Positions 3,875-56,136 of a stretch of 64,000 nucleotides of DNA are shown here, in pieces. The notes beneath the pieces were generated by a model. The model was not told where the DNA came from. It saw only the letters and a program-made list of their open reading frames with translations, and searched no databases. Numbering within the stretch: the first letter of the stretch is position 1; every line of letters starts with the position of its first letter. A program made the position numbers and the translations under genes. The stretch is from a virus: positions 15,937-79,936 of IMG/VR virus record IMGVR_UViG_3300024329_000007. One strand, given 5' to 3'.

Positions 3875-4192
3875 TTATGCGAACCTTTTCGCTGATTCTT
3901 TTTGAAGTAATTTAAGAAATTTATCGGAATCTAACTTAGTTGGCTCTGACCATTGTATCTCATGATCTATATATTCGAATGCTTCGTAGTCATTAGACTC
4001 TGCCTCTAGCATTTGATTAAAGACTGCAACGCAACTTTCCTCTTCATAAAGAAGAAAATCAGCATCCATCTCAACTGAGAATTGAAAACCACCTTTCATT
4101 TTCCAACGTTGTGGACATTGACCGTTTCCATCCCAATCATGTGCTCCATAGTTCTCTTTGTATTGACAATTGATAATAACTTTACTTTTCAT
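3875..4192 (-). CDS. Hypothetical early protein
   Basis: 105-aa ORF (QYKENYGAHDWDG..WKMKGG) directly downstream of a repeated early-promoter cassette. Confidence 0.75.
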   Translation of the reverse strand: MKSKVIINCQYKENYGAHDWDGNGQCPQRWKMKGGFQFSVEMDADFLLYEEESCVAVFNQMLEAESNDYEAFEYIDHEIQWSEPTKLDSDKFLKLLQKESAKRFA

Positions 4193-4217
4193 AATTTGTG
4201 TTGTTTAAGTGTTGATG

Positions 4218-4280
4218 TTTAATTACAGTACTAATATAATAAAAAAGATTGACATAAAAAAACTTTTTGGCAATTATTTT
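4218..4280 (-). promoter_or_regulatory. 63-nt early promoter cassette, copy 1
   Basis: AAAATAATTGCCAAAAAGTTTTTTTATGTCAATCTTTTTTATTATATTAGTACTGTAATTAAA; near-identical to 48342-48404. Confidence 0.75.
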
Positions 4281-4292
4281 GCAAAAACTTTG

Positions 4293-4430
4293 TTAAAAGT
4301 CTTTATTTTTGCCTTTATGTTTATCCTTTCTTGTGTATTGCTTCTTACTTTTATGGACATTACCACGCATTGCTTGCCATATCTCTTGTATGGTAAACTG
4401 TGTTTTTTCTAGTTTTTTATTCTTGTCCAT
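4293..4430 (-). CDS. ArfA-like (alternative ribosome rescue factor A-like) basic peptide, 45 aa
   Basis: MDKNKKLEKTQFTIQEIWQAMRGNVHKSKKQYTRKDKHKGKNKDF*. The YxRKxKH motif resembles ArfA SYxRKGKH; own promoter copy immediately upstream. Confidence 0.6.
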   Translation of the reverse strand: MDKNKKLEKTQFTIQEIWQAMRGNVHKSKKQYTRKDKHKGKNKDF

Positions 4431-4441
4431 TGTATTTGTGC

Positions 4442-4504
4442 TTTAATTACAGTACTAATATAATAAAAAAGCCTGAGACTAAAAAATCTCAGGCCAATTA
4501 TTTT
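4442..4504 (-). promoter_or_regulatory. 63-nt early promoter cassette, copy 2
   Basis: Shares AAAATAATTG and TTTTTTATTATATTAGTACTGTAATTAAA with copy 1. Confidence 0.7.
4465..4494 (-). terminator. Rho-independent terminator embedded in promoter copy 2
   Basis: GCCTGAGA-N8-TCTCAGGC followed by TTTTTT on the minus strand, downstream of the stop at 4522. Confidence 0.7.
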
Positions 4505-4521
4505 GTTAAAGTTATTAACAA

Positions 4522-5001
4522 TTATCCAAACTTTTTAATTGTCTTTGTTAATTCATCTAAAGATTTACCAACATGTTCACCAAAATCTGCATGAAGATCT
4601 TCATCAGCATCTAAAGGCTGCATATCTCTCCACTCTGTATATTTAGAAACAAACAATTCTGATGCATCCACTATTTTCTTAATATCGGATTTTGCATAGT
4701 CCTTTCCATAGTAACTATTAGGATCTACATCCTGTCTTGCTGTTTCGTCAGTAAATGGATTTTTAATATCGATGCCATCGTAATCAAAATTAAAAGCCTC
4801 AAATGATTTTAAATGCTTCATTCTTTTCTTTTTCTTTTTTTTGTACTCTTCTTCTGCGTCACCCCTGCCGGCAGGAACATCACCAGAACCTACACCACCA
4901 TCCATTGGCAATACAACAGGTCCCATTCCGCCCATTCCAGCTGGAGTTATATTTTCATTGATATCATCAATGAATGACTCAAATGTTGGTACGTATTTCA
5001 T
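4522..5001 (-). CDS. Putative internal head protein with two capsid-targeting-like motifs
   Basis: Begins MKYVPTFESFIDDINE; internal MKHLKSFEAF follows a poly-Lys run. Confidence 0.55.
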   Translation of the reverse strand: MKYVPTFESFIDDINENITPAGMGGMGPVVLPMDGGVGSGDVPAGRGDAEEEYKKKKKKRMKHLKSFEAFNFDYDGIDIKNPFTDETARQDVDPNSYYGKDYAKSDIKKIVDASELFVSKYTEWRDMQPLDADEDLHADFGEHVGKSLDELTKTIKKFG

Positions 5002-5020: not shown

Positions 5021-7936
5021 TTACCAAGCGTAATCAAAAGTTTCAATTTTAGATATTTGATCCTTAATTGTTTTAGCGTAATTTTTAGCTTCTCTTTCGT
5101 AGTAAGATTCAGATTGTCCATATCTTTCTTCAGATTCTTCACCCTGTCTAATGTAATCACAATATCTAGAATAGTTATCTAAAATATTTGACATGTGATT
5201 AGAAGCATCTCTTAATTTAGCTTCTCTACCTTTAGAGTTTTCTCCTATTTTAATTTCATCATATCTAGTTTTATTACCACTCGACAATCCGGCTTTAATT
5301 TGTTCTGCTAATTCATCAATAGCCTTTTCAACCATTTTATCAATTGGTAAAGAAGCTGCCTTGGTAGCTAAAATTTGGTGATATCTGTCTGCGTTAGCTT
5401 TCTTAAAAGCTGCATCATCTGTAAATGCAGTTGCACCTTCTTTTGCTCTTGCTCTGTCACCTCTTAAGTTTTCAGTAGAATACTTCTGTCTAATTAGATC
5501 TAAGCTTACAATAATAACTCTATCAGAAACTTCTGCAATTCTTTTACCATTACTTAAACCAGAAGCACCCCAGCCTCTATATTTCTTGTTTACACCAACT
5601 TGATCTGCAGAACCTTTTCTACCATCTTTTTTCCATGAAGTTGTCTTAGCCCATCTAGACCAGTCGTTAGTATAAAATTCTCTATCACCACCCATAGCTG
5701 CTAATAAACACCCGCCACCTGGAATTGTGCTCATTGCATTGTATGACCTAGAATCCTGTGGTAAATATGGATTCTCTTTTTCATTATCTGAAATAAAGAA
5801 AATAATATTTTTAGAACCACCATGGTTTTTAAATGCTTTTTGTGGGTTATTGTCTAAAATAAAATCTTCATCTTGTATTTTATCAAGGGCAACTTTAGTC
5901 AGTTGGTAAAAACCACCTGCTAATCTAGCTACGTTTTTTCTAGCGTGTTTTCCTTCTTGGTTACTTTGTAAAATACCTGATAATATAGCACTAGATATTT
6001 TTTCGTTTAATACGTTATATTCTGACTCAGTAGTAGCTGATTCTTCGATAAAACTAGCTAAATGTCCATCATCATCCCATCCGTATTTAGAATCGGCTAA
6101 AACAGCTTCAATATCTTTTCTTTTTCCAGTTAATTCAACTTCTGGATGTCCTCCTGCTGGGCCAATCTCTCTTAATACTTTTAATTCAACTTTGTGTTTC
6201 TTTAAAAGTTTTTTAAGTCCTTTTGATTCAGGGTCTGTAGCATCCATTATTACAGTAGCTTCACATAATTTTTCGTCTAGCCTATCAAAGAAGTCAAAGT
6301 GTTCACTTTGTAAATCTTCACCATACTTTTCGTCCCATATTTCAGCTAATTCATATTTAGTAACTTTACCTTTATACTTATCCATGATTTCAACATAGAT
6401 ACTACCATATTCATATTCAAAATCTTCACCATAAGAAAGATCCCATGCCTTTTCAATATCTTTAAATGTAAGCTTTTTGGCTTTGGCTTCAGTAACTACT
6501 GATTCTTTTACGAAATTCTTAAGATCATCTGGATCTATAGAGTATTCTACGTCATCCTCGTCACTTCTAAGAACAACTTCATATTTACTTATGTCCCAAA
6601 TCTTAAATTCGGCATCTTTATTAAGAGTAGATCCATCTACGTCGTTAGTTATATCGTAAACATCTCCATCAAAATCATCGCTATGGACTGTAGTTTTAAT
6701 CTTTTGGCCTTTTTTAAATTTAGCCTCGTTAATAGATTTGCTTGAGCTATTAATAAAGCTTGCAAATGATTCATGTAAAAATTTATTATTCATTTTTTTT
6801 GTATTTTTATTTGTTACTTTATAAGTTTTACCATCGAATTCAAATTCTTCGCTGCCCTCTTCAATTGCTTTAGCTCTTGCTCCTAAAAATGCGTTACCTT
6901 CTCTAACATTATCAGCAGATTCAGTATATAGGTTTACATAATTTCTACCTTTTTCAGAGTAAATTGAAGTGATTTTAAATTCACCATCAATTTTCTTACC
7001 AGTATCTTTTTTATAGTATTTAGCATAGTAAGCTTTAAAGAATAAGTTTGGTTCTAGTTCTCCAAAGAAGTGTGTCATTTTACCCATAAAGAATTTAGCA
7101 GATGGATAATAAGTTGTTATATCTGCTTTGGTTTCAGCATCTAAAACACCTTTATCGAAATCTTTTACAAATTTAGCTTCAGTAACTACTGATTCTTTAA
7201 CAAGAGAATCTGCGTCTATTGCTATTTCACTTGAAAAAGTCTTTAAACCATTAACCACAATCATACCATCTTTTTGTATACGAGTAACTTCACCTGAATC
7301 GAATGGTTTTTTAGAACTTCTGCTTAGAATAGAAACTTTATCTCCTACTCTAAATTTAGCTTCAGTAACTACAGATTCTTTAATTCTATACTTTTTCATT
7401 AAAGATTCAGCATCATCAATTGCATCTTGTAATTCTTGATCGCCCAAATCTGCCCAGTATTCAGATCCTCTTTCTCCGTCTAAATAATTCTGAGATATTT
7501 GTTCCCATTCATTTTCTGCTTTTCTATCATACATTAAAATACTATCAAGGTCTCCGATTCTGTCTACAAGAGCGTTAACGCTATAATTTCTATTATCAGA
7601 GCCAGCCATTGGACCATATTCATTAAGTTCTTTAGACTTAGAAGTTTTATTTAGCTCACCAAGAATTTTAATACCCCATCTCGAAAGTGATACACCATCT
7701 TCAGATACATTAAAGTATTTTTTATTTCTAGATTTCCATTGTTTATGATCTCCGGAAAGTTCAGAAATAATTTTAGTAAATTCTTCTTTAGTAATTACAC
7801 CATCTTTAATAGCCTCAATAACTGAATTTCTTACACTAGCCGTTTTACCAACAGTCCTTGCTGGATGGCGTTCTGTATATTTTCGTTTAAGTGTTAGTTT
7901 TTTACCTTCACTCAAGAATTCATTAAATTTTTTCAT
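5021..7936 (-). CDS. Modular polyprotein-like internal head protein (about 9-10 modules)
   Basis: Leader MKKFNEFLSE; three KESVVTEAK linkers plus ELNE, NVRE, SINEAK, LCE and VLNE junctions separating 55-95 aa modules and a long C-terminal domain. Confidence 0.6.
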   Translation of the reverse strand: MKKFNEFLSEGKKLTLKRKYTERHPARTVGKTASVRNSVIEAIKDGVITKEEFTKIISELSGDHKQWKSRNKKYFNVSEDGVSLSRWGIKILGELNKTSKSKELNEYGPMAGSDNRNYSVNALVDRIGDLDSILMYDRKAENEWEQISQNYLDGERGSEYWADLGDQELQDAIDDAESLMKKYRIKESVVTEAKFRVGDKVSILSRSSKKPFDSGEVTRIQKDGMIVVNGLKTFSSEIAIDADSLVKESVVTEAKFVKDFDKGVLDAETKADITTYYPSAKFFMGKMTHFFGELEPNLFFKAYYAKYYKKDTGKKIDGEFKITSIYSEKGRNYVNLYTESADNVREGNAFLGARAKAIEEGSEEFEFDGKTYKVTNKNTKKMNNKFLHESFASFINSSSKSINEAKFKKGQKIKTTVHSDDFDGDVYDITNDVDGSTLNKDAEFKIWDISKYEVVLRSDEDDVEYSIDPDDLKNFVKESVVTEAKAKKLTFKDIEKAWDLSYGEDFEYEYGSIYVEIMDKYKGKVTKYELAEIWDEKYGEDLQSEHFDFFDRLDEKLCEATVIMDATDPESKGLKKLLKKHKVELKVLREIGPAGGHPEVELTGKRKDIEAVLADSKYGWDDDGHLASFIEESATTESEYNVLNEKISSAILSGILQSNQEGKHARKNVARLAGGFYQLTKVALDKIQDEDFILDNNPQKAFKNHGGSKNIIFFISDNEKENPYLPQDSRSYNAMSTIPGGGCLLAAMGGDREFYTNDWSRWAKTTSWKKDGRKGSADQVGVNKKYRGWGASGLSNGKRIAEVSDRVIIVSLDLIRQKYSTENLRGDRARAKEGATAFTDDAAFKKANADRYHQILATKAASLPIDKMVEKAIDELAEQIKAGLSSGNKTRYDEIKIGENSKGREAKLRDASNHMSNILDNYSRYCDYIRQGEESEERYGQSESYYEREAKNYAKTIKDQISKIETFDYAW
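6483..7381. repeat. Three dispersed in-frame 26-30 nt direct repeats encoding KESVVTEAK
   Basis: gcttcagtaactac(t/a)gattcttt within 6483-6508, 7169-7198 and 7352-7381. Confidence 0.9.
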
Positions 7937-10207: not shown

Positions 10208-11509
10208 TTATCTACCGTATTTAATAATTCCCATTAATTGATTAATTGCAGCAAAAGTTCCAGTTAGTTTATAAGTATGTCCTTTATATCTAAATACAAG
10301 GCCTTCGGTTGGTATGATAGATTCAATACCTCCAATTCTATCTAAACGTTCTAGTTCTTTAGCTACTTTATTTATCTGAGTTATATCTCCGCCCTTTTTA
10401 ATCTTATCAGCTTCTGTTCTAATTTGATTATGCAGTCTCTGCATTTCTTTATCTGGATTTGCAGCCACAAAGTTAGAAGCGTTCTTTAAGATAACAGAAC
10501 CTAATTCTAAGAAAAGATCTTCAAAAGGTCTAATATTTTCTTTATATTTCTTTTTAACATCTTCTTTGTCAAATCTTTTAACAGCAGCTGCTTCATCTTT
10601 TCCTATTTCCTTTGCAAGACTTCTTAGATTAAGTGTTTTCTTATCTCCATAAGCCCATCTTAATAATAAGCCTTCTTTATAGTCTTGTTGTAAATCGGGG
10701 AAGTTTTTATCAATAGTTTCTCTCCACCACATTTCATGATATCTAGAAACCTCATCTGCATCTGTTAATCCATAACGATCTCTTAGCGCTTCAACCTTTT
10801 TTATAAACTTAAGTTGGTTCTTTTCAAAATCAATATCCTTACCTATCTTAATAATTTGTGGTGGAATAACTGTAAAGACTTTACCAATATTAGCGTTAAC
10901 TTTTTCTAAAGCAGCAGCAATTGATTTACCGTACTTAGGCTCTTCGCCAATTATATTACCATTACCATCTGTTATTTTAATTCCATGAAATTGAATAACG
11001 TCTCTATCATAATAGATAACATTTGGGTTTTTAGAGTAGATAAGCTCCATGTTCATAAAGTTCTTACCATTATCAAATGCTTCTAAATCTTTATCAGATA
11101 ACTTGACTAGAGAAGTTGCTAAATCTTTAGCAGCAAAAATATAAGTTTCTTCAACTAATTTTGATGCATGTCCAGTAAACATATCGATAATACCATTAAG
11201 GTCTAATGGGTTTGCCATTTGTCCTTTATTTCTAGCAAACATTGCTTGGCCATCCTTTACAGTGACAAAAAGATTTTGCCCATCAGTTTTTTCAGTAGGC
11301 TCTTCTTCAAAATTAAGTTCACCGCTAAGTCCAGATTGGATTAATTTTTTAAAGTCTCCAAATGTTAATTGTTTATTATCAAATGGATGTGACATGTGTC
11401 CTGCGGCACCACCTTCAAGTATTAAAGCCTCATTAACCGAAAATGAAGGAGCCTCTTTCAAAGTCCTTCTTTCCAGTACAAATTCTCTATAAGATTGTAG
11501 TTTTTTCAT
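10208..11509 (-). CDS. ATP-dependent RNA/DNA ligase-like nucleotidyltransferase (DUF6267-like)
   Basis: TEKTDGQN (motif I KxDG), NMELIY, EGLVF (motif IV), YKLTG (motif V); N-terminal GGAAGHMSHPFD. Confidence 0.6.
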   Translation of the reverse strand: MKKLQSYREFVLERRTLKEAPSFSVNEALILEGGAAGHMSHPFDNKQLTFGDFKKLIQSGLSGELNFEEEPTEKTDGQNLFVTVKDGQAMFARNKGQMANPLDLNGIIDMFTGHASKLVEETYIFAAKDLATSLVKLSDKDLEAFDNGKNFMNMELIYSKNPNVIYYDRDVIQFHGIKITDGNGNIIGEEPKYGKSIAAALEKVNANIGKVFTVIPPQIIKIGKDIDFEKNQLKFIKKVEALRDRYGLTDADEVSRYHEMWWRETIDKNFPDLQQDYKEGLLLRWAYGDKKTLNLRSLAKEIGKDEAAAVKRFDKEDVKKKYKENIRPFEDLFLELGSVILKNASNFVAANPDKEMQRLHNQIRTEADKIKKGGDITQINKVAKELERLDRIGGIESIIPTEGLVFRYKGHTYKLTGTFAAINQLMGIIKYGR

Positions 11510-11510
11510 A

Positions 11511-13583
11511 TTATGCTAGTGATGATTGTAAAATTCCTGCACATTTTCCGTAGTCACCATCGCATTTTTTTAATATGCCGGCAACAACCTCGTCTGCTTT
11601 AGCCTCATCAAATTCTTCTCCAAAAGCTTTTTGTAATACTTCGTATGCGTATTCTTTAAAATCTTCTTCAGATTTAATTTCAGCCTCGTTTACAGATTCA
11701 AAAAGAGAATTAAAATCATCTAATAAAGATTGTCCCATTCTTTCTTCTTTAAGCTCTTGTAAAAATAGAGCAGTTCCTTCAACAATCCCTTGGCCAGACC
11801 ATCCTGCCGCATTAGCGATATCTGAATAGTATTTGTCTAGAATCCTTTTTAAAGTAGTAGTTCCTAGTTTTACAAAGTGTCCACCTAGACCTGGTAACTT
11901 AATCTCTAAAGCCGCCATTTTACCTTTAATGTTTCTAGAAACAATTTTTTCTCTATGGAAGTTAGCGTCTGTCATTGCTTCTTCAAAAAGATATTTAACA
12001 CAACCTCTAATAGACTCATGAGACATTGCACCAAAATCTGGTAAAGTCTTATAGAATATTTTCTTATATTGTGTAACTACCTTTTTAGCATCTCTTTTGC
12101 CGTCAACTTTAATAGCTTCATTAACTACTGATTCATTGCACATTGAAACTAATTCTTGTGCAATCTTTTTTGCTTTAGAACCTTTATGTCCATAAGATTC
12201 AACTGTATCTAAAGCATCTTCCATTTCCATGCCATGTAATTCTCCCATGTCTCCTCCTCTTTCATCTAAAAGATCCTGTAAGATATTTTCAGCTTCTGAT
12301 TCATTAACTACTGATTCAAAATAATCTTCATAGTCAGAGATTGAGTCTGGTCCCCATACATCAGCTAAAACTTTTTCGATATCTTCTCTTTTACCGGTTA
12401 ATTTAACTTCTGGGTAACCGTGGTCACCTTCTTCTTTTTGAACTTTCATTTTAACTTTATTCTTCTTTAAAGATGTAGTTAAGGGTTTAAATTTAGTTGG
12501 GTGTATATCGTCATCGTTTCCAAATTCTATACCCGAAAGAGATGTTTCATTAACAACTGATTCAAAGGTTGATGATGGCATTAGTTCTTTATCGCCATAT
12601 ATGTCTGCTACCAACCAATTTTTATTCTCTTCATCCCATAAATAAACCCACTCAGCGCCGGCTCCATTTGAAACATCATTTAAATATTGGTCTACTTTTT
12701 TATATTGTCCTGTTGTTTGCATGTCACCGCTTTCACCACGATCTCTTCCGTAAAAAATAGTATAACCTCTAGTCGGATTAGAAAAACTATGTTTCTTACC
12801 TATTGATTTATCTAAAAATGAAATACCAGCCTTTCCTAATTTCATTAATTGCTTAATGTCACTTTCGCTATATCCTTTTAACATTGGTAGCATGTGCTCT
12901 GGGTAACCATCAGAATGTACGTATGTTGATGTGATTTTACCACTCTTACTAAGAATACCAATTTGAGATCTAGTTGATTCGTTAACCGCAAGCGACTCAA
13001 ATGCTGGAACTAACTCTGCGTTTCCGTCTACATGTAGCATATACCATTTACCATCTCGCTCGTCAAAAAGATAAACATATTCTGCCCAACCAATATCTTC
13101 TAGATATTTAGACATGTTTTTAATCTTTCCTTTTTGATTTTCCATGTCGCCATAGTAATTCATATACCTTGGGTCTTCTTCTAATCCAGAGCTACCTCCA
13201 TTTTTAAGAACCATGTTTAGTGGCGAACCACCCTTTAAATATGTCATCTTAATAAGTGGTAACATTGCTTCTGGATAAGAATCAGCATGTGTGTATACAC
13301 TTTCTATATTACCTCTTTTGTCTATTTTACCAAAATGGCCTCTAGTGGCTTCTGTTAGTAATAAAATAGACTCATTAAGGCCTAAATTTTTTAACTTGTC
13401 AAAAAATTCAAATCTTTTTTCTTCTTCTAATTCTTTTATTCGAGTTACTCCATATTCAGATAAAAGTTCTTTAAATAGATCTGCTTCGTTAGATCTTTTA
13501 GCGTTCTGTTTTTTCTCTAATGCAACAGTATCTTTTTCATGTTTTGCTGCAGAAAATTCAGCAAATGAATTTAATTTCTTCAT
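11511..13583 (-). CDS. Modular polyprotein-like internal head protein (about 7 modules)
   Basis: Leader MKKLNSFAEF; junctions LLLTE, FESLAVNE, FESVVNE (x2), NESVVNE, FESVNE; tandem duplicated HxD(G/S)YP domain. Confidence 0.6.
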   Translation of the reverse strand: MKKLNSFAEFSAAKHEKDTVALEKKQNAKRSNEADLFKELLSEYGVTRIKELEEEKRFEFFDKLKNLGLNESILLLTEATRGHFGKIDKRGNIESVYTHADSYPEAMLPLIKMTYLKGGSPLNMVLKNGGSSGLEEDPRYMNYYGDMENQKGKIKNMSKYLEDIGWAEYVYLFDERDGKWYMLHVDGNAELVPAFESLAVNESTRSQIGILSKSGKITSTYVHSDGYPEHMLPMLKGYSESDIKQLMKLGKAGISFLDKSIGKKHSFSNPTRGYTIFYGRDRGESGDMQTTGQYKKVDQYLNDVSNGAGAEWVYLWDEENKNWLVADIYGDKELMPSSTFESVVNETSLSGIEFGNDDDIHPTKFKPLTTSLKKNKVKMKVQKEEGDHGYPEVKLTGKREDIEKVLADVWGPDSISDYEDYFESVVNESEAENILQDLLDERGGDMGELHGMEMEDALDTVESYGHKGSKAKKIAQELVSMCNESVVNEAIKVDGKRDAKKVVTQYKKIFYKTLPDFGAMSHESIRGCVKYLFEEAMTDANFHREKIVSRNIKGKMAALEIKLPGLGGHFVKLGTTTLKRILDKYYSDIANAAGWSGQGIVEGTALFLQELKEERMGQSLLDDFNSLFESVNEAEIKSEEDFKEYAYEVLQKAFGEEFDEAKADEVVAGILKKCDGDYGKCAGILQSSLA
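12115..12566. repeat. Three in-frame direct repeats encoding ESVVNE
   Basis: tcattaac(t/a)actgattca at about 12118, 12301 and 12547; nearly the same DNA as the KESVVTEAK repeats at 6.5-7.4 kb. Confidence 0.85.
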
Positions 13584-18839: not shown

Positions 18840-19214
18840 TTAAATTCTTTTACCCATTGCAGCACCAAGAGCGGCACCAACTAATCTGGAAGTTAATAAA
18901 TCGTAAAAAATACCTTTTTGAATTCCTAAAACTTTAGCAATAACCTTTCCAATTGATTTACCTAATGCAAATCCAGCTAAACCACCTATAATAGAACCTA
19001 GAATACCTTCATTAGTCATCTCTTCATTTAAACGATCTAAATCATAAGTACCATCCTTTCTTTTATATTCAGCTTCAAATGCTTCAATAGCCGCATCTAC
19101 TTCAGCTTCTAATTCTGGAGTCCACTCTTCTTGTAAGCCCTCTTTGACTAAAGAATAGTCCTGCTCACTAATTTCGTTTTCTACTAAATAATCGTTAAAT
19201 GTTTTCATATTCAT
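18840..19214 (-). CDS. Putative virion protein: capsid-targeting-like leader, acidic pro-region, glycine-zipper C-terminus
   Basis: MKTFNDYLVE...MTNE|GILGSIIGGLAGFALG...LVGAALGAAMG; GATATATA at 19231-19238. Confidence 0.55.
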   Translation of the reverse strand: MNMKTFNDYLVENEISEQDYSLVKEGLQEEWTPELEAEVDAAIEAFEAEYKRKDGTYDLDRLNEEMTNEGILGSIIGGLAGFALGKSIGKVIAKVLGIQKGIFYDLLTSRLVGAALGAAMGKRI

Positions 19215-39453: not shown

Positions 39454-42252
39454 TTATTTTACTTTTATCATATTACGTTTTACAACGTTTTTATTTCCAT
39501 ACGTGTCTTCGGCATTTAGCTCAATTGAGTAGAAACCAGACTCTTTAAAAATATAAGTCAGCCACATATTATTATAGTATATATCATCATTTGCTGGGTT
39601 AGTTGCATGTTTAATACTCCATGTTGGATTTTTTAGACCCGGCATTTTAGAACTATCCACTGCAATTGTTACATGAGTCGATCTTTCTACTTCTGCAAAA
39701 TCTTTAAAAACCCTAGTATCATCGAACGTTGGATTATAATGTATGACATGTTGTAAGCCCTCAGTTATATATATTGGTTCCAGGTCTGTAGGCCCTTGTA
39801 CTGATACAGAATCAAAATCATAATTCTTAGAATACTCTTTACCAACTGCTAAAATATAGTAAAAAGTTTCGCCACTTCCATTGTTATCTATATCAGCAAA
39901 TACTGGATTGTAATTAAACTTACTAATGATAGGATCCATAGACGCATTAAGTTCATCTGTAATTGTTTGCCAAGCACTAATATCTAAACTACCAGATGGT
40001 GTTGGAGATGTAACAGTTATAGAACCAGTCTCAATTTCATTAGTACTAACATTTGTATGTGTAATAGATAGAACTGTTCCTGTTTCAAGATCATCTATTT
40101 TAAAAGACGAAGTTTGATCTGGCCCCACTCTAGTAGAATCCCAAGAAAGATTTTTTGTATCAAACCATCTATAAGAAGACTCTTCCCATCTATAAGGTCC
40201 AGTAGTTTCACTAAAACCAGTCTCGCTATAAATATCCTGATATCTTCGCACTGTAGAAAATCTAATACCTTGGCTAATATCATGCTGATAATTAGCTCGA
40301 TCTAGCGTTAAATAAAGTGCAGCAATATGTTCATCTACCGATGTCTTGTTATTTTGAGGATTGTCCCAATAACCACCAGCTTTACTCCAGTCTAATTTTG
40401 TATCGTCCCATGTAAAAGACTCTAGCCATTTATAAATACCATACAATTCAATATCTTTTAAATTAACTTCAAACAAATCGTCTATTTTATAATAAGACCT
40501 ATGTCCAAATAAATCATAAGTTCTCATCTCTACACTATATACATCATTGTGCGGAATGAAAATCGGTAATCTTAAATAATCATCAATTGCTCCTCTAAAA
40601 CTTTGATTATACCCATTTCTACCCGTAACTATCCATTCTATTTCATATACCCATTTTTTCCACCAGTTTTCCCAAGTTACACCAGAGTGTAGTTGTTCAA
40701 TTCCGTTTGGTACTGGATCATTTCCATCTGGATCTGCATCTTCCCATGTAAAAAGGGCCTCATCCCATATATCATCAAACGATGGAATTCCATTAAGTAT
40801 AATAGGACATCCAACTGGAGTGCCCTCATTCCAAGTTTCTAAAGTTCTATCATGATAGTTTTCATAGAATGCATCTACAATATCTCTTAACTCAGTGATT
40901 TCACTAGAAGTAAGTGTAGAATAATCTATATCACGGTAATTTAAAAACTTTACGTAATTATTTGTAGCATCATTTTGATCTAAAACATTACCAATTACCA
41001 GTGCCATATCTTCAATAAAAATAGATCTTTCTTCTTGGTCTATTTTAAAATCAATATTATGACCCTCACTAAAATAAGATATTGCATTTTGAGTATTCCA
41101 CACATTTATATTTTTTTGTGTAAAATAATCACCTTCTGCTGTAATATCAATAATCTTAGCGTTAAGGGGTAAAAAATCTAATTGTAACTTTTTAGATAAT
41201 CCATATAATTTAAGTAGAATTTCTTCTGGTGTAAAATCAAAAATCTCAGTTACATTTGGGATATCCCACTCATCATAAGTTCCGTTTGGTTCATTAAGCC
41301 TATAAACAAGACTAAATTTACTAGTCTTTTTCATTGTTTTAGAAGGAGTCTGAATAACCTGCTTCTTTCTAGTCATTTCACCCCTAACTGAAGAGTTAGG
41401 TACTGGAACTGCATGTAATTTACCAAAATTACTTTTAGAAGAATCTACATTTAACCAATATTCTTTTAATGTAATATTATTATACCCAAAGAAATCAATT
41501 GCGTTTAAGATTGCTTTATATGTACCAACAAACGGCTTAATATTGTGTAACTCTAATAAGAGTTCTTTTCTTTTTTGATTTAATAAAATGTTATCTGGCG
41601 ACATTTCAGAAAGATCATGACTTTTAAATAAAAGAAAATCACCTTCACTTAAAGTAGCTCCAAAATTCTGTAAAAGATTTTTTAATCTTTCATCTTCAGC
41701 AACAACTTCACCATAAAATGAAATTGAAGCTATCATATTTTTTGAACTTCCTTCTTTTATATAGACATTTAATATTCTAACATGAGCACCTTCAAATTCA
41801 GATTTAATAGCAATATTAACCTGAAGTGCTGATGTATTATTTTTAGAATCATTAATAATGTAATAACCTTCTGGGTTTGTGCTATCAACATCACTAAAAT
41901 CTCCAAGATTAATTTCAACTGTTTTTTTCTCTGTAACTATCGGTAATCCATTTTGCATTTCTGCATCATACATAAAAATATCATCACTATGGTTTGAATT
42001 ATTTTCTGTTGCCCATTCAAAACAAAGAATTGCTGGAGTGCTAGATTCTGACCTAGGATAATTAAATGTAAAATTATTTCTATGGATAACTTCCTCTAAT
42101 ACAAATATATTAGAAGTTTCATAAAGCCCTGTCGATACCTCATCTAAAAAAACACTACCCTGTAAGAAACTATCACTATAACTTGAAGATTTAGTCTTCA
42201 AATTTAAGTCATTTTCAGTGTCTTTAAAAAATCTTAAATTATTATAAGCCAT
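39454..42252 (-). CDS. Baseplate wedge protein (gp7-like)
   Basis: IKPFVGTYKAILNAIDFFGY..LKEYW motif; located downstream of the gp6-like gene. Confidence 0.55.
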   Translation of the reverse strand: MAYNNLRFFKDTENDLNLKTKSSSYSDSFLQGSVFLDEVSTGLYETSNIFVLEEVIHRNNFTFNYPRSESSTPAILCFEWATENNSNHSDDIFMYDAEMQNGLPIVTEKKTVEINLGDFSDVDSTNPEGYYIINDSKNNTSALQVNIAIKSEFEGAHVRILNVYIKEGSSKNMIASISFYGEVVAEDERLKNLLQNFGATLSEGDFLLFKSHDLSEMSPDNILLNQKRKELLLELHNIKPFVGTYKAILNAIDFFGYNNITLKEYWLNVDSSKSNFGKLHAVPVPNSSVRGEMTRKKQVIQTPSKTMKKTSKFSLVYRLNEPNGTYDEWDIPNVTEIFDFTPEEILLKLYGLSKKLQLDFLPLNAKIIDITAEGDYFTQKNINVWNTQNAISYFSEGHNIDFKIDQEERSIFIEDMALVIGNVLDQNDATNNYVKFLNYRDIDYSTLTSSEITELRDIVDAFYENYHDRTLETWNEGTPVGCPIILNGIPSFDDIWDEALFTWEDADPDGNDPVPNGIEQLHSGVTWENWWKKWVYEIEWIVTGRNGYNQSFRGAIDDYLRLPIFIPHNDVYSVEMRTYDLFGHRSYYKIDDLFEVNLKDIELYGIYKWLESFTWDDTKLDWSKAGGYWDNPQNNKTSVDEHIAALYLTLDRANYQHDISQGIRFSTVRRYQDIYSETGFSETTGPYRWEESSYRWFDTKNLSWDSTRVGPDQTSSFKIDDLETGTVLSITHTNVSTNEIETGSITVTSPTPSGSLDISAWQTITDELNASMDPIISKFNYNPVFADIDNNGSGETFYYILAVGKEYSKNYDFDSVSVQGPTDLEPIYITEGLQHVIHYNPTFDDTRVFKDFAEVERSTHVTIAVDSSKMPGLKNPTWSIKHATNPANDDIYYNNMWLTYIFKESGFYSIELNAEDTYGNKNVVKRNMIKVK

Positions 42253-42533: not shown

Positions 42534-44365
42534 TACTTAAGTGCTTTTCTATTTCCTGCCTGTACCCTAGTGTAAATTGTTCTAGGTACTGGAGTTGAGT
42601 CAAAGTTAATACTTAATGCTGCCTCTTCATTCATAAGAGCATCATCTACAATTACATCACCATCTCTATCTTGCCAACCTCCTCTAAATACTGCAACTTC
42701 TTCTTTATCCATAATAATATCACCCCATTGATCTAATCCAGCCACATCTTCTGGGATTGTAGTAGTATCATCAACTCTTACGACATTTACAGTTTCTAAT
42801 TTTTTAAAGAACACATATTTCTGTTTACCATTTCCAATATCTTCTAATAATACTGGCTCTTGTGGCTGTACTTGTGTTGTAATTGATTCATAATAACCAA
42901 GTCTTCTAGCTGTTTCTTCAGTTTCAGAAATAAATCTAACATTTACTGAATCAATACCTTCTATTTCTTCTAAGATGTAAATAATATCAGACTTAGGTAG
43001 TTTATCTCTTCTTGTTATATTTAATAAGTAATCAGAAACAACAGCCCTAACATCATTAAAAATATCTTGTTTACTAAATCCTTCAAAATATCTAATATCA
43101 ATATCCATTGAATATTTTCTAATTTGTGGCTTTACAAAATTAACTTCTGTCGTTACCATCATTTGACCAGAGTCTTCTAACACTTTTAACATTGCGTCAT
43201 ATTCCTCTTGTGCAAAAAACATTTCTTTTTCTGGCATTGAAAAATAATCACCGCCTTTAGAAACTTTTTTCTTAATATCCGGAGTTGCAAAAATATAAAT
43301 AACATTATCGTCGTCTAAGTATTGGTCGTCAGTTCTATTATAAGCGTCAATATAAGAGAAGATACCATACTTAGAAAGAAAGTATTCATAATTATCTGGA
43401 GTAGCCAACACAAAGCTCTTAGAGGCCATAGGAGTTAATATCTTTGTAAAGTCAATAGATTCTCTATTAGCTCCCATCTTTGGCGAAGAAGTTACTTCAA
43501 CATTTAATAGTTCATTAAGGTCATGTAATGTTCCAGTTGAATCTTCACCTTCAACTTTCCATTTAACTTTTAATTCACCGGAATCATTAAGATTACCTTG
43601 AGCACCTTTATGTTTTAAATATTCTACTTCTACAATAGCGCCTTTATTTGGTATAGCACCAAAATTAGAGTTACCAAAATAAATATCTAACCCACCAGAA
43701 ATTCCAGTCTTAATTAGATAGCCTTTTTCATTTGGTAGTAAATCATATAAAGATTCATGCTTAGTCCACTGTTCTCCATTAACACTAATAGTAACTCTAT
43801 TATGATCTGTTAAACCGCTGCCAGTTTTACAGTTAAAAGATTGCATCGATTCACCAGTACTAGTAAACGTTTGTTTTTCAAAAACACCCTGTACGATTCC
43901 ACATGTAGTCCAGTTAAAATCTGATTTAGAAATTCTAAAGGCATCCCTAGAAGTTAATAATGTGTAGAACAATCCATTTGATTCAAACTCAAGTTCGGCT
44001 CTACCATCTATAACTAATCCATTTCCGGCAATATCTCCTAAACTTGCAGATGGACTCCATCTAAATCTAATTTCACCAAATGCAGAATAACCTCTTGTCG
44101 CATCATGTCCAGTTAATCTAGACATTCCATATACAGATTCCGGATGTTGTGCTGTATAAATATTTTGTTCAACTAACGCATCTTCAATATAAAACATGAT
44201 AAGCTCAGTTATTTCAGATAGAACTAAAACAATTTGAGCAAACGGAGAAGCCGTAGTAAATAATGTACCAGCTCTTTTATATGCTGATATAATATAATTA
44301 CGTGCGTCCTCTCTAATTTTATTAGAAGTAATTCTTAGTGTATTTAAAAAATTTTGTTCAGCCAT
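42533..44365 (-). CDS. Baseplate wedge subunit (T4 gp6-like)
   Basis: SPFAQIVLVLSE, IYFGNSNFGAIP..G..VEVEYL...G..GN, GANRES, LATPDNYE. Confidence 0.8.
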   Translation of the reverse strand: MAEQNFLNTLRITSNKIREDARNYIISAYKRAGTLFTTASPFAQIVLVLSEITELIMFYIEDALVEQNIYTAQHPESVYGMSRLTGHDATRGYSAFGEIRFRWSPSASLGDIAGNGLVIDGRAELEFESNGLFYTLLTSRDAFRISKSDFNWTTCGIVQGVFEKQTFTSTGESMQSFNCKTGSGLTDHNRVTISVNGEQWTKHESLYDLLPNEKGYLIKTGISGGLDIYFGNSNFGAIPNKGAIVEVEYLKHKGAQGNLNDSGELKVKWKVEGEDSTGTLHDLNELLNVEVTSSPKMGANRESIDFTKILTPMASKSFVLATPDNYEYFLSKYGIFSYIDAYNRTDDQYLDDDNVIYIFATPDIKKKVSKGGDYFSMPEKEMFFAQEEYDAMLKVLEDSGQMMVTTEVNFVKPQIRKYSMDIDIRYFEGFSKQDIFNDVRAVVSDYLLNITRRDKLPKSDIIYILEEIEGIDSVNVRFISETEETARRLGYYESITTQVQPQEPVLLEDIGNGKQKYVFFKKLETVNVVRVDDTTTIPEDVAGLDQWGDIIMDKEEVAVFRGGWQDRDGDVIVDDALMNEEAALSINFDSTPVPRTIYTRVQAGNRKALK

Positions 44366-45624: not shown

Positions 45625-46932
45625 TTATTTTATTTTTTTACTTACTACTATTTCGGTATCTTCAAATCTAGCAGCATCGCTTTTAAAACCTTCTCTAAAA
45701 ATACCCCCAATCATTTTACCTTTAAAGATTCCATCTCTACCAAAGACATAACAATTAGTTAACTCGCAACTTCCATGTACATAAGAAGATTCTATTTTAG
45801 ATTCAAATACTTCAGTAGATCTATATAAATCACATCTTAATAAATTAGCGCCCTTAACGGTACATCCATATAAATTAGACGTTTCAATATTACCAGCCAA
45901 TTCACAGTCTACAAAATCATATCCTTCTAATAAATAACAGATTCCAAATTTACCATCTTTAACCTGTATTTTTCCTAAGTCGCTATCATAATTAATTTTA
46001 CCAGAAACCATGCCACCATTTACAATAAGATCCATTACTTTTTTCTTTATCTTAGCCCACTGTAATTGTATAATTTGTTCATGTTCTTGTAGGTCTACCA
46101 TAATTGTAATTTCAGGCCAATATTTATTAATATTTTTCCAATCTTTACTACTTTCTATTATTGGTAAATTTTTATTAAGAATCTTTCTAAGCTCAATCTT
46201 ATTTTCTTCGTTAAAAAGAGGGCTATTGCAAGAGTTCCACATTTGCATTAAAAACATTTCAGAAAGATAAAAAATGTTTTCAGATTTTTTTTCATAATCT
46301 GCGCCACCTAAATATCTAAATTCTAGATAATTACTTTCTTTCTTTGAAAAGTTAATTCCATAGTATTTTGTATCTGCAAATTTATAACTCATAGATGAAA
46401 TATTACTACCATCAAAAAAGTAGGCTTCATCTTTAGGCATAATCCATTTAATACTTTTTGCATAAACAGACTTTTCTCTTTTAGGGAAGAATTTATATAC
46501 TTGTTGCTCATTAAAATCAAGAATGAATTTTAAAACATTCATTTTTGAAATCATCGCAGGATCCTCTAAATATTTTTTATCAAATGAAAGATTAATATGT
46601 ATAGATGCTCTGTCATTAGTATAGCCATTCTCATTAATCCAGTTTAAAACATTAGAAATCATAATCCTAGCGTTTCTATATGGAACAGGCCCTGTTACTA
46701 ATTCTACCAAGCCTTTACCACCAGACATATCTGGTTCTAATTTAAACTCATCAGCAGATGGTTGAAAATCAGAATGGGCTTTATCTTCAAGCCTAATAGG
46801 TCGGCCTAGGAGTTTACTCAATGATTTTTGAGTCTCTTCTAGGCCGATATTAGAATAGAATTCGAACTCGACACCTACTAGCGCTGCGTTCAGTATAGAG
46901 TTGCGATCTGAATTCTTATTTAATTTTTTCAT
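45625..46932 (-). CDS. Putative amidoligase (COOH-NH2 ligase type 2) with C-terminal beta-helix-like repeats
   Basis: VGVEFEF, VELVTGP, ASIHINLS, KYYGINF, LEFRYLGG. Confidence 0.75.
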   Translation of the reverse strand: MKKLNKNSDRNSILNAALVGVEFEFYSNIGLEETQKSLSKLLGRPIRLEDKAHSDFQPSADEFKLEPDMSGGKGLVELVTGPVPYRNARIMISNVLNWINENGYTNDRASIHINLSFDKKYLEDPAMISKMNVLKFILDFNEQQVYKFFPKREKSVYAKSIKWIMPKDEAYFFDGSNISSMSYKFADTKYYGINFSKKESNYLEFRYLGGADYEKKSENIFYLSEMFLMQMWNSCNSPLFNEENKIELRKILNKNLPIIESSKDWKNINKYWPEITIMVDLQEHEQIIQLQWAKIKKKVMDLIVNGGMVSGKINYDSDLGKIQVKDGKFGICYLLEGYDFVDCELAGNIETSNLYGCTVKGANLLRCDLYRSTEVFESKIESSYVHGSCELTNCYVFGRDGIFKGKMIGGIFREGFKSDAARFEDTEIVVSKKIK

Positions 46933-46983: not shown

Positions 46984-48267
46984 TTATTGTGGCATCTTTA
47001 AAAATACCTTTTTACTCTCCGTATCGATTCTTGTGATTTGTACTGTAATTTTATCACCAGAATTAAAGACGTCTATTAAGCCATCTTCAAGTTCACTAAT
47101 ATGTAATAAACCAGTAACACCATCTTCAATATTTATAAATAAACCATACTCTTTTTTAGTCTTAATCGTTGCCTCGACAGTCGATGGAATTTGATATCTT
47201 TCAATAATATCATTCCATGGATTAGAGACTACGTTATCTTTTTGAGTTAGTGTAATTTTAGTGTTAGAAATAATATCTTTTACTTTAAATTTAATTTCAT
47301 CACCTGGTTTAATATCTCTAGACTTAAACGCCGGGAGCGTTAATTCATCTAGGTCATTAATGTGTATCATACCAGTAAGACATTTATTAAATTCAACAAA
47401 TACGCCATATCTAGCAGAGCCAGTAACTGTACCAGTATATTCTTCTCCCATATTATCTTTAATGGCCTGAATTTCTGTTGGTATTAGTGCTTGTAAATAT
47501 TTTCTATGTGAAACCACAATAGTTCCTCTATCTGCTGAGAAGCTTACAGGTACTACATAAATTTCAGTACCAATAATAGATTCAAAGTCGTGAAGTTTAT
47601 TAATTCCAGCAAGTGAACCTGGCATAAAGCATTCTACTCCTTGAACTTCTATAATATAACCACCATTCTCGATCATGTTTTTAACAGTACCAACCCAAGC
47701 AGTATTACCTTCTTCAACTCCAGCTCTTAAGTCTAAGAATACCTTATGTTTTACACCACCTGAAATCGAACCAAGTACATGTGTGTTATTTTTATTAGAA
47801 GTAATTAAAACTGCAGTTTCTTCTCCTGGTTGTAGTGCTTTAACAAGAGCAGTCTCTTTATCATACTTAACATAAATCAATTCTCTATAGCCAATATCGA
47901 CTGAAATAAATTCTTGATTTACAGCAAAGATCTTACCTTCATATATAGAACCTTCTGTAATTAATGGTAAGAGAGGATTTTGCTGATTAGCATGTTCCAT
48001 AAGATCATAAAGTTCTTGAGCATAAGATTCTCTCGAATATACTCTATCTCCTTTTTTAGTCTTAATATGTGGGTTTGGTTTTCTGGTTTTAGAAGGGCAT
48101 GTGGCCTCGTAAGCATCCCACATGAATTCACCATTTTCATCGTAAAAGCTCTGTTCAGTTTCTGGAGCTTGTTCTTTAACTTCGATTTGCGGTTCTGGAA
48201 GTTTATCAACCGTTTTGTCTAGTGTTACTGTAGTAATTCTAGGTCTTTTGTTTTTTTCGTTGTTCAT
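46984..48267 (-). CDS. rpsA: Phage-encoded ribosomal protein S1 homologue (four S1 domains)
   Basis: EGSIYEGKI..ISVDIG; GGYIIEVQGVECFMPGSL...VVSHR; YGVFVEF..LTGMIHINDL; YGLFINIEDGVTGLLHISEL...KVFLKM. Confidence 0.85.
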   Translation of the reverse strand: MNNEKNKRPRITTVTLDKTVDKLPEPQIEVKEQAPETEQSFYDENGEFMWDAYEATCPSKTRKPNPHIKTKKGDRVYSRESYAQELYDLMEHANQQNPLLPLITEGSIYEGKIFAVNQEFISVDIGYRELIYVKYDKETALVKALQPGEETAVLITSNKNNTHVLGSISGGVKHKVFLDLRAGVEEGNTAWVGTVKNMIENGGYIIEVQGVECFMPGSLAGINKLHDFESIIGTEIYVVPVSFSADRGTIVVSHRKYLQALIPTEIQAIKDNMGEEYTGTVTGSARYGVFVEFNKCLTGMIHINDLDELTLPAFKSRDIKPGDEIKFKVKDIISNTKITLTQKDNVVSNPWNDIIERYQIPSTVEATIKTKKEYGLFINIEDGVTGLLHISELEDGLIDVFNSGDKITVQITRIDTESKKVFLKMPQ

Positions 48268-48341
48268 TTATTTTTATATTAAAGGTGTAACATAATATAT
48301 ATCAGCTTTCTTTTCTATTATAGGAGCATTGGCTTCTACAA

Positions 48342-48404
48342 AAAATAATTACCAAATAATTTTTTTATGTCAATTATTTTTATTATATTAGTACTGTAAT
48401 TAAA
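48342..48404 (+). promoter_or_regulatory. 63-nt early promoter cassette, copy 3
   Basis: AAAATAATTACCAAATAATTTTTTTATGTCAATTATTTTTATTATATTAGTACTGTAATTAAA, 11 nt before the ATG at 48416. Confidence 0.75.
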
Positions 48405-48415
48405 AACTAATAGAC

Positions 48416-48634
48416 ATGCAAAACGTAAAAAACTTACTTCAGAATTGGAAACATGATTTAGCACAAGCTGGCGAGTTAATGGGAACCGATCTCGAAACAC
48501 TTGATACTCGAGGGTTTAAAAACTTAGAGTTTCAAATTGAACAACTAGAATCTGCTATTAAAAAAGACGATCAGTCTAAAAGATGGGCAGAACAAGAAAT
48601 GGCAGACTTTAATAATCATTTAGGAAGGTTTTAA
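48416..48634 (+). CDS. Small early hypothetical protein
   Basis: 72-aa ORF directly after the early promoter cassette. Confidence 0.7.
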   Translation: MQNVKNLLQNWKHDLAQAGELMGTDLETLDTRGFKNLEFQIEQLESAIKKDDQSKRWAEQEMADFNNHLGRF

Positions 48635-48654
48635 TTAAACAAGATACATAACAC

Positions 48655-49812
48655 ATGAACTTACATAACTTCGCAGATTTTAAACTTTTAACAGAGGCTA
48701 AGAATTCACTTAAGATGAATGTGCCTTCTGATATATTAGATCTACATAAACTATTTAAAAAGAATGGTAAAGAACTTTTTATAGTTGGTGGTGCAGTTCG
48801 AGATGCACTGCTTGGTAAGAAGCCAAAAGATTTTGATTTAGCAACAGATGCCTTCCCGGCAGAAGTTATTGAAATAGTTACTAATGCAGGTTACACAACC
48901 ACTGGAGAAGTTGGACATCAATTTGGTGTGGTTATTGTAAATGTACCGTCAGATCCAGCTGGAGTTGAGGTTGCAACATTTAGAGAAGATATTGGTAAAG
49001 GCCGAAGACCTGATGCCGTGGAGTACTCTACAATAGATAAGGACGTTCTAAGGCGAGATCTAACTATCAATGCATTATTCTATGACATGGGAACTGAAGA
49101 GGTTGTCGATCTTGTAGGTGGCTTAGAAGATATAAAGAATTCAAAGATTAGAACTGTCGGTGTTGCTGCAGATAGATTTGCAGAAGATCCACTTAGAAAA
49201 TTAAGAGCCTTAAGATTTGCTGGTAGAACTGGAAGTAAATTAGAAAAAGAAACTGCTGAAGCTATACTAACAGATAATAGTTTAGAAGGTATTAGTCCAG
49301 AAAGAATTAGAGATGAATTTAAGAAATCAGTAACGACTGCAAAGTCTGCTAAGAAATACTTGGAAATGGTTTCTGAATTTAAGTTATGGAATATTATGTT
49401 TCCGACATTACCTATTAGTCAAAAATTCGTTAACACAAATACTTGGTTAATTCAACTAACTCAATTATTTATGGCAAACGATACAGATCTTCTTAAGAAA
49501 GAAATGAATAAGGCTACATTTTCAAACGATGAAATTAGTGGAGTTATATTCTTAAAGAACTTAATGGCATTTAATCCAGCCAATGTGTTTGATACACATA
49601 AGCAATTTAAAAATAGCGGACTTGATAAAAAGGTTATTTTAGAATTTGTAAAGATTAATAGACTAGATGCTAAAATGATTAAAGCCTTTTTTAAATACAA
49701 GCCATCTACAAATGGTAGAGATGTTATGAAAGAGTTTGGTTTAAAAGGACCTGCAATATCTGATAAAATCAATCAAATAGAGGCTGATAAATTTAAAAAA
49801 CTTTTAAAGTAA
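48655..49812 (+). CDS. cca: Class II tRNA nucleotidyltransferase (CCA-adding enzyme)
   Basis: VGGAVRD..KDFDLAT, flexible loop REDIGKGRRPD, RRDLTINA, EDPLR templating motif; no poly(A)-polymerase G(R/K)(R/K)F signature and no HD domain. Confidence 0.88.
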   Translation: MNLHNFADFKLLTEAKNSLKMNVPSDILDLHKLFKKNGKELFIVGGAVRDALLGKKPKDFDLATDAFPAEVIEIVTNAGYTTTGEVGHQFGVVIVNVPSDPAGVEVATFREDIGKGRRPDAVEYSTIDKDVLRRDLTINALFYDMGTEEVVDLVGGLEDIKNSKIRTVGVAADRFAEDPLRKLRALRFAGRTGSKLEKETAEAILTDNSLEGISPERIRDEFKKSVTTAKSAKKYLEMVSEFKLWNIMFPTLPISQKFVNTNTWLIQLTQLFMANDTDLLKKEMNKATFSNDEISGVIFLKNLMAFNPANVFDTHKQFKNSGLDKKVILEFVKINRLDAKMIKAFFKYKPSTNGRDVMKEFGLKGPAISDKINQIEADKFKKLLK

Positions 49813-55248: not shown

Positions 55249-56136
55249 TTATTTAGAACAAGGAGAATCTGAATCATCACCCCCGTTAGCATTACCGCCG
55301 CCTTGTGGGCCACTTCCATCACTATTATTATCTCCAGTAGAATCTGCGTTTCCACCATTGCCTCCGTTTCCACCAGCTCCACCAGCTCCACCAGCTCCAC
55401 CTCTACTGTTAATACCATCATTCATAAAAGTTGCATTTCCAGTAGTAGTGTCACTAACATTACCAGTTGCCCAATTAACTCCAGCTGCATAACCTTCGTC
55501 ATATTTGTTTTCAAGGGGGTTATTATTAGAATTATTAGATCCAGATCCCTTTCCATCATTTAGGGCCGCGTCGTCTAATAAATCGATTAGTTCTGTATCA
55601 GAGCCTTTAAATTTTTCTAATGTAGTAGAAGATGTTACTGCCGCAGTTTGAGCCTGCTTACCTAATCTAATACCCTCACCATCAAATTCATAAGTTTTCT
55701 GACCAGAAGGAACTACGTTAGGTGGCAATAACTCGTCTTTACCATATTTCTTTTTAAGACGATCTATTTTAGCCTGATCTTTAGGCGGCAATCTTTTAGT
55801 ATCTATAAATTGATCCTTTACTTTATTGCTAGCCTCTGATAAATTAGGTCTTTCTAATTTATAATATGCAATTTCTTTTTTCGGTATTCTAAGAAGTTCA
55901 CCTTCAATAATACTAAATGGATCTGAAATTCTATTATACTTCAATATAATATCTACCATACGGTGATCTCCATAGTACTTATCAGCAATTAAATCTGGCC
56001 TACCAGTCTCATCTCTATCTACATAATGTAATGTATCTAAAGACTCATCACCGAGAACTCTAAATATCATAGTCGGTTGGACCATTAGAATTTTAGAGCC
56101 TTCTACAATTTTATTTACAATAGTTTTTAAATTCAT
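55249..56136 (-). CDS. Baseplate wedge protein gp53-like (LysM) with Gly/Asn-rich tail
   Basis: GRPDLIADKYYG...ILKYNRISDPF..EGELLRIP. Confidence 0.8.
   Translation of the reverse strand: MNLKTIVNKIVEGSKILMVQPTMIFRVLGDESLDTLHYVDRDETGRPDLIADKYYGDHRMVDIILKYNRISDPFSIIEGELLRIPKKEIAYYKLERPNLSEASNKVKDQFIDTKRLPPKDQAKIDRLKKKYGKDELLPPNVVPSGQKTYEFDGEGIRLGKQAQTAAVTSSTTLEKFKGSDTELIDLLDDAALNDGKGSGSNNSNNNPLENKYDEGYAAGVNWATGNVSDTTTGNATFMNDGINSRGGAGGAGGAGGNGGNGGNADSTGDNNSDGSGPQGGGNANGGDDSDSPCSK

Follow-up and report, generated by a model that had tools for sequence, protein, structure and literature searches.

We analysed a 64,000-nt stretch of viral DNA (hereafter the window; bases 15937–79936 of the 79.9-kb IMG/VR record IMGVR_UViG_3300024329_000007, completeness 27% by CheckV) and concentrate here on one of its genes, an open reading frame (ORF) at 48655–49812 on the plus strand that encodes a CCA-adding-type tRNA nucleotidyltransferase behind a 14-residue N-terminal leader. 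The phage is a marine jumbo phage of ~300 kb with T4-type head genes, the latter read in relatives. We think it probable that the enzyme is targeted to the capsid, trimmed by a prohead protease and injected into the next host, with cleavage, packaging and ejection argued by analogy with phage T4. The leader itself is real, translated, under selection and outside the fold. The gene product divides into two parts:

48655–48696, plus strand: leader MNLHNFADFKLLTE, codons 1–14, a capsid-targeting-like propeptide with a predicted L-T-E| cleavage site (from conservation, model confidence and T4 likeness)
48697–49812, plus strand: predicted mature class II CCA-adding-type tRNA nucleotidyltransferase, A15–K385 plus stop (from PF01743, PF12627, phrog_2244 and AlphaFold)

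Enzyme fold and N-terminal leader

The ORF (385 aa, start MNLHNFADFKLLTEAK) is best assigned as a full-length member of the class II CCA-adding-type tRNA nucleotidyltransferase family, with nucleotide addition predicted. The first-pass annotation of this DNA had named it a CCA-adding enzyme, and domain, family, motif and fold comparisons agree on the family. The PolyA_pol head domain (Pfam PF01743) covers residues 41–166 (E 9.7e-33) and the RNA-binding neck (PF12627) residues 195–252 (E 1.3e-7), and the protein matches phrog_2244 (E 1.5e-57), labelled tRNA nucleotidyltransferase in PHROGs. G45, R49, D50, D59, D61, R133, R134 and D135, belonging to motif A (GGxVRD/DxD) and motif B (RRD), are invariant in 84 sequences; the motif D region (EDxxR, the nucleotide template), EDPLRKLRALRF, is kept, with R181, R184 and R187 invariant.

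An AlphaFold model from 84 homologues has a mean predicted local distance difference test score (pLDDT) of 93, and Foldseek matches it over its full length to bacterial and human CCA-adding enzymes (6q52, 1miv and 4x4w; template modelling (TM) scores 0.63–0.72). The TM score is 0.69 for 6q52, 6qxn and 1miv and only 0.56 for Escherichia coli poly(A) polymerase (PAP; 3aql). Like cellular class II enzymes (Bacillus type, 1MIV and 6Q52/6QY6; human TRNT1, 4X4W), the predicted protein has the GGxVRD...DxD, RRD and EDxxR motifs, the FR..x..RRP loop and the head-neck-body-tail fold; unlike them, it carries ~14–20 extra N-terminal residues, and identity is 26–29%. The NCBIfam equivalog cut-offs were not reached (TIGR01942 pcnB, 187 bits against a cut-off of 306; NF009814 CCA, 178 bits against 290), and ‘CCA-adding’ is therefore the best assignment but unproven.

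The precursor N-terminus reads MNLHNFADFKLLTE|AKNSLK. Its leader is kept in more than 100 marine metagenomic relatives at 70–100% identity and across four different genomic contexts, and F9, E14 and A15 are invariant across 17 aligned relatives (70–93% identity). Amino-acid replacements in the leader are conservative (F/Y/L; D/E/N/Q), and its conserved residues switch codons synonymously (TTC/TTT, GAG/GAA, GCT/GCA/GCC), which argues that selection acts on the peptide. The leader is conserved yet unstructured: pLDDT falls below 50 in residues 1–16 alone, and solved cellular CCA and PAP structures align from query residues 21–40 onward. The first-pass annotation had asked whether cellular homologues lack the leader; the solved structures do, and the model gives no indication that it is a structural element. 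A start at M21 (48715), which would give an enzyme of canonical length, was rejected: most relatives have L or V in place of this only alternative initiator, and the frame ahead of it is conserved.

Among cultured phages, gene starts were read in the T4-like PX29 and ValKK3 only; in both the enzyme is leaderless, and within this scope no leader-bearing CCA enzyme and no cultured test system came to light. Matches in cultured phages begin at query residues 11–42, that of AsSzw2 at residue 11.

Module junctions, shared tags and head machinery

A search of 1.84 billion representatives gave 148 related CCA modules, of which 45 start at the predicted mature end (e.g. MSNLKLKIPSD), 59 have an N-terminal leader and 44 are embedded in proteins as long as 1930 aa. 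The motif [LIVMF]-x-E peaks at the E14 column, in 22 of the 59 leader-bearing and 15 of the 44 internal modules (columns 19–20), compared with ~1.2–1.6 expected per column, and the P1' residue at this junction is mostly S, A or G; examples from polyproteins are EVITE|AQ, QILEE|AK and GGLDE|ST. Because the junction recurs at the E14 column of internal modules, TE|AK is a genuine module border. Each computational check named in the first-pass annotation favours its reading, which is supported in part, and this border and the 45 relatives that begin at the mature end point the same way.

The partner modules in these polyproteins comprise an NMNAT-like nucleotidyltransferase, DUF5661, a PNK-like kinase, an HD domain, a 2H/Acb1-like phosphoesterase and a ligase-like module of the same kind as a tagged 433-aa protein of the window (listed below). 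Six metagenomic polyproteins of 1300–1900 aa (P0141, P0121, P0130, P0151, P0152 and P0146) combine CCA, HD, PNK-like AAA_33 kinase, 2H/Acb1-like, NMNAT-like, DUF5661 and ligase-like modules, a whole tRNA heal-and-seal set per chain, and P0121 has two CCA modules. Loci related to P0141 gave partial relatives only, in which the modules are separate genes. Another group of CCA modules (P0134, P0142, P0154, P0156, P0158, P0160, P0163 and others) has the upstream junction ...E-x-x-P-[VI]-R-, which suggests another phage clade with a different processing rule.

The tag at the start of the enzyme is shared by further products of the window, among them:

5021–7936, minus strand: 971-aa tagged polyprotein, MKKFNEFLSE|G, with three KESVVTE|AK linkers; tag and junction in common with the CCA enzyme
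11511–13583, minus strand: 690-aa tagged polyprotein, MKKLNSFAEF..., with ESVVNE-type linkers; exact GATATATA 34 nt upstream
10208–11509, minus strand: 433-aa tagged protein, MKKLQSYREFVLE...; a module of this kind stands after the CCA module in relatives' polyproteins
18840–19214, minus strand: 124-aa tagged protein, MNMKTFNDYLVE|N; exact GATATATA 16 nt upstream

Of the 72 ORFs of the contig, 9 have an N-terminal [FY]x[DE][FY] motif, where residue shuffles give ~1.1. The strict tag followed by [LIVM]xE is found in three contig ORFs (0.06 expected) and in eight ORFs of the 212-kb relative G001 (0.30 expected). The tetrapeptide TEAK occurs four times in the 72 contig ORFs, three times in the linkers of the 971-aa protein and once at residues 13–16 of the enzyme. 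The reported sharing of tag and TE|AK junction between enzyme and polyproteins is therefore beyond chance. Huge-phage orthologues of the CCA gene (L001, L002) likewise start like other ORFs of their own record, MILKKYKMFLES beside MIIKKYIRFLES.

Tag-like sequences also stand inside the ORFs at 4522–5001 and 5021–7936, both on the minus strand (...MKHLKSFEAF... and ...MNNKFLHE|SFASF...), and look as if once-separate tagged genes had fused into polyproteins. The 433-aa tagged protein, which has no Pfam, PHROG, NCBIfam or PDB sequence match, carries a GHMSHPFD motif, and a K-x-D-G-like motif was seen in the related module of polyprotein P0121; the 433-aa protein may be an unmodelled RNA-ligase-type enzyme, but this could not be confirmed.

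The closest known counterparts of the leader are the propeptides of T4 internal proteins. In the T4 record, MKTYQEFIAE|A opens both IPII and IPIII, and ...ITE|A is found in IPI. Like IPI, IPII, IPIII and Alt, the precursor has an N-terminal propeptide in the 10–19-residue range, with an aromatic-x-x-aromatic core and an [LI]-x-E|A end (here ...FADFKLLTE|A), and its lineage has an S77 protease, a gp20-type portal and a gp23-type capsid protein. Unlike those proteins, the putative cargo is a 43-kDa tRNA nucleotidyltransferase rather than a small basic inhibitor or ADP-ribosyltransferase, and the CCA module also occurs within multi-enzyme polyproteins; packaging, established in T4, is here a prediction. 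The T4 capsid-targeting sequence (CTS) loads proteins, foreign ones included, into T4 heads (PMC3012670, PMC5694885), and S77-family proteases cleave after Glu (PMC5694885).

The phiKZ-like giant phages (SPN3US, phiKZ, 201phi2-1) offer a second comparison. They too package many head-internal proteins, including a virion RNA polymerase, some of which have N-terminal propeptides removed by an S77-family protease cutting after Glu; unlike the present leader, these propeptides are mostly longer than 100 residues and end in A/S/G-x-E sites, and no tRNA enzyme is reported among the packaged proteins.

The prohead protease is known from relatives only, because the window's contig is 27% complete and has no match. 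The S77 domain PF03420 was matched in G001, G002 and G004, relatives with CCA genes 79–93% identical to that of the window (G004, 93%). The head genes of G001 are ordered portal (PF07230), tagged 122-aa ORF, protease, capsid (PF07068) and tagged 326-aa ORF, which puts the 122-aa ORF, between portal and protease, at the gp67/68 position; the capsid protein is of gp23 type and begins MANLINE|S. The G001 protease (147160–149622; L028:14160-16619) is fused to a region of ~500 residues with coiled-coil-like repeats, acidic stretches and many [LV]AE sites, and by its sequence the fusion looks like a self-digesting protease-scaffold. A gp55-like late sigma factor is present.

Late-type box and plus-strand island

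A short motif precedes the enzyme gene:

48643–48650, plus strand: GATACATA, a one-mismatch copy of the late-promoter-like box GATATATA, ending 4 nt before the ATG (from sequence and orthologous sites)

This is the sole site within one mismatch of GATATATA in 48300–48700. Alone, a one-mismatch box is weak, there being 48 such sites on the plus strand, and GATATATA itself is not more frequent than in shuffles (10 vs 7.5); the signal lies in strand and position. In G001, the coding strand carries 38 of the 40 exact boxes, and 30 of the 40 lie within 60 nt upstream of co-oriented genes, among them portal, protease, tail and baseplate genes. An exact GATATATA stands before the CCA gene in 10 of 10 related loci, at the 4-nt offset in seven (L008–L012 and L016–L017) and at 22 nt in L013–L015, and the mismatched box of the window is validated by these exact boxes at the same offset in relatives. 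The possibility that a box only 4 nt before the ATG is unusable for this ORF was rejected, as the spacing recurs at five tagged G001 genes and at the orthologous CCA sites.

Five of the six G001 genes with the 4-nt spacing are tagged (Fisher p = 2e-7). The arrangement GATATATA-N4-ATG, seen at G001 (L023, L026) 41826–41840, 42857–42871, 45787–45801, 55495–55509 and 106676–106690 and at 48643–48657 of the window, is thus nearly confined to tagged genes and may reflect leaderless or near-leaderless late mRNAs, or a mobile promoter-plus-tag cassette. An exact GATATATA also lies 28 nt upstream of a 427-aa protein gene in the baseplate region (46984–48267, minus strand), whose product has S1 RNA-binding domains (PF00575, E 1e-24) and looks like a late-expressed phage protein.

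The enzyme gene belongs to an island of unusual orientation. All non-overlapping ORFs of at least 90 aa are on the minus strand except in 48416–49812 (plus), and the GC skew changes sign only in the 48–50 kb bin, so that both lines agree with the plus-strand island of the first-pass annotation. The window is AT-rich (29–36% G+C), and its matched genes include a UvsW-type helicase and gp6- and gp5-like baseplate genes, the nearest baseplate relatives being phages of Bacteroidota hosts and huge uncultured phages. The cultured Vibrio phage ValKK3 (L041, 150083–151180) has its leaderless tRNA nucleotidyltransferase gene between those for the prohead protease inhibitor and the major capsid protein, on the opposite strand, a placement that echoes the window's island amid structural genes. 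Three further features bear on how the island arose:

48330–48404, plus strand: PeSL-like intergenic repeat of ~65 nt ending in AGTACTGTAATTAAA, a candidate promoter/terminator cassette heading the island (from repeat copies)
48416–48634, plus strand: 72-aa ORF, the first gene of the island (from the ORF list)
4190–4515, minus strand: two further PeSL-like copies, where the closest relatives carry the CCA gene (from gene order in L010 against the window)

The 14-mer AGTACTGTAATTAAA occurs exactly three times, at 4218–4231 (minus), 4442–4455 (minus) and 48391–48404 (plus), each time upstream of a gene. The three repeat copies align across ~65 nt, and a clear GC stem with a T-run was seen by eye in one copy only. 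In the closest relatives (L008–L010) the CCA gene is co-oriented within a tagged cargo cluster, between a homologue of the 971-aa polyprotein, two genes upstream, and homologues of the window genes at 2268 and 1211; in the window it lies 44 kb away. The repeated PeSL-like cassette before the CCA gene thus explains the plus-strand island.

PeSL cassettes of T4-type phages are conserved, repeated promoter-terminator-like intergenic elements flanking variable genes (Arbiol 2010, PMC2839356; Comeau 2014, PMC4122927). The element described here is similarly repeated, conserved and intergenic, and the position of its gene differs among close relatives; unlike published PeSLs, to which its sequence is unrelated as far as compared, it has only a candidate promoter/terminator role.

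The 72-aa ORF, which has no Pfam or PHROG family above threshold, is bridged to the start of the CCA gene by RNA-library contigs (records 6 and 21), and the CCA gene is covered by such contigs, which break at the repeat. DNA carry-over is possible in these metatranscriptome data, and the contigs give no readout of transcript starts, strand or timing. Contigs from two runs read the box site as C, with no difference from the window listed. Metatranscriptome contigs end within 48359–48406, their loose ends leading to at least three further contexts, and more copies of the element are therefore expected in the phage population than the three of the window.

The late-type promoter assigned to this gene in the first-pass annotation is thus sustained in part. 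Exact GATATATA at orthologous sites and the motif before portal, protease and tail genes speak for it, whereas the window's own copy has a T-to-C change and a PeSL-like cassette lies upstream. With this change in the box, and with the gene behind a cassette that also heads the 72-aa ORF, the timing of expression in the window is uncertain.

Proposed route into the head, rival explanations and meaning

By analogy with T4, we infer a route of five steps: late synthesis, docking, trimming, carriage with ejection, and tRNA repair. The precursor would be made late from a GATATATA-type box, degenerate here, and in this genome perhaps also from the PeSL-like cassette promoter. Through its leader it would dock to the scaffolding core while the prohead assembles, and there the S77 (T4 gp21-type) protease would cut after Glu14 (L-T-E|A) to leave an enzyme starting AKNSLK. 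The mature enzyme would remain in the DNA-filled head and be ejected with the genome, and in the next host it could add or restore tRNA CCA ends before phage proteins are made. Its predicted substrates would be phage tRNAs from CCA-less genes and host tRNAs with damaged 3' ends.

Several observations weigh against this route. The window's 80-kb contig (27% complete) has neither a PF03420 match nor a head gene, and its box departs from GATATATA by the T-to-C change; the gene sits behind a cassette resembling early-promoter PeSLs. The leader is missing from 45 related enzymes and from cultured PX29 and ValKK3, and the cleavage motif [LIV]xE is of low information, with many occurrences within the folded enzyme. 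The choice between CCA-adding and A-adding or poly(A) specificity is unproven by the NCBIfam scores. Finally, 7 of the 12 tRNA genes of G001 have no encoded CCA, in line with a role in cytoplasmic maturation alone.

Such a role is the most substantial rival: the enzyme would act in the cytoplasm only, maturing CCA-less phage tRNAs or repairing tRNAs, and leader and junction would serve polyprotein processing or a cytoplasmic RNA-repair complex with no link to the capsid. The G001 tRNA genes (L030:11941-14344, L031:11272-11859), ten of which cluster directly upstream of the CCA gene, are equally compatible with it, as is the position of the gene directly after a 10-tRNA cluster in G001, L014 and L015. 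Iyer et al. (2021, PMC7824862) treat the CCA enzymes of jumbo phages as RNA-repair factors; their survey likewise describes phage CCA enzymes alongside tRNA genes and ligase, kinase and phosphoesterase functions, but mentions no leader, polyprotein form or virion delivery of the enzyme. The co-occurrence of CCA modules with PNK-like, HD, 2H and ligase-like modules resembles known multidomain repair enzymes, and many relatives have no leader at all. Against these points, the only protease seen in the lineage is of the S77 prohead type and is fused to a scaffold-like region, and T4 gp21 is not known to act outside proheads. Further points are the match of the tag to the T4 CTS, the tagged ORF at the gp67/68 position between portal and protease, and the late-type box before the gene, where early expression would be expected for tRNA maturation. 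We regard an exclusively cytoplasmic role as rather unlikely.

Two further explanations concern the leader itself. The conserved start could act mainly at the RNA level, GATATATA-N4-ATG giving a leaderless or near-leaderless late mRNA whose A/T-rich first codons are selected for initiation; the fixed 4-nt spacing common to five tagged G001 genes and to the CCA gene in eight loci, and gene starts without Shine-Dalgarno sequences, point that way. The tag also occurs, however, at spacings of 16–34 nt and inside polyproteins, codons in the leader change synonymously while protein substitutions are conservative, and the E|A junction is kept at internal module borders, where there is no initiation, all of which makes an RNA-level explanation improbable. 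That the N-terminal extension is a chance or neutral feature without function is more improbable still: the leader is short, the cleavage motif carries little information and the box of the window is mismatched, but the invariance of F9, E14 and A15, the enrichment of the tag over shuffles and the coincidence with polyprotein junctions all speak against accident.

The proteins that phages are known to inject include small inhibitors, ADP-ribosyltransferases and RNA polymerases. Our literature searches gave no precedent for packaging of a CCA enzyme, for delivery of a tRNA repair enzyme by virions or for phage cargo polyproteins. Beyond the single enzyme, we tentatively suggest, as a possibility about which we are less than confident, that marine and huge phages of a large clade with T4-type heads make arbitrary enzymes, single or as polyproteins, into head cargo by means of a portable cassette, GATATATA-N4-ATG plus a tag ending in [LI]-x-E. 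The CCA enzyme might then belong to a set of injected enzymes for tRNA healing and sealing (kinase, HD/2H phosphoesterase, ligase-like and NMNAT-like modules), which would be at work from the very first second after entry and would pre-empt tRNA-targeting host defences.

If capsid delivery of the enzyme is correct, the fight over tRNA integrity, waged with anticodon nucleases and CCA-end toxins, would start before any phage gene is expressed, and the combination of tag and junction rule would allow the injected proteome of abundant uncultured ocean phages to be listed from sequence alone.

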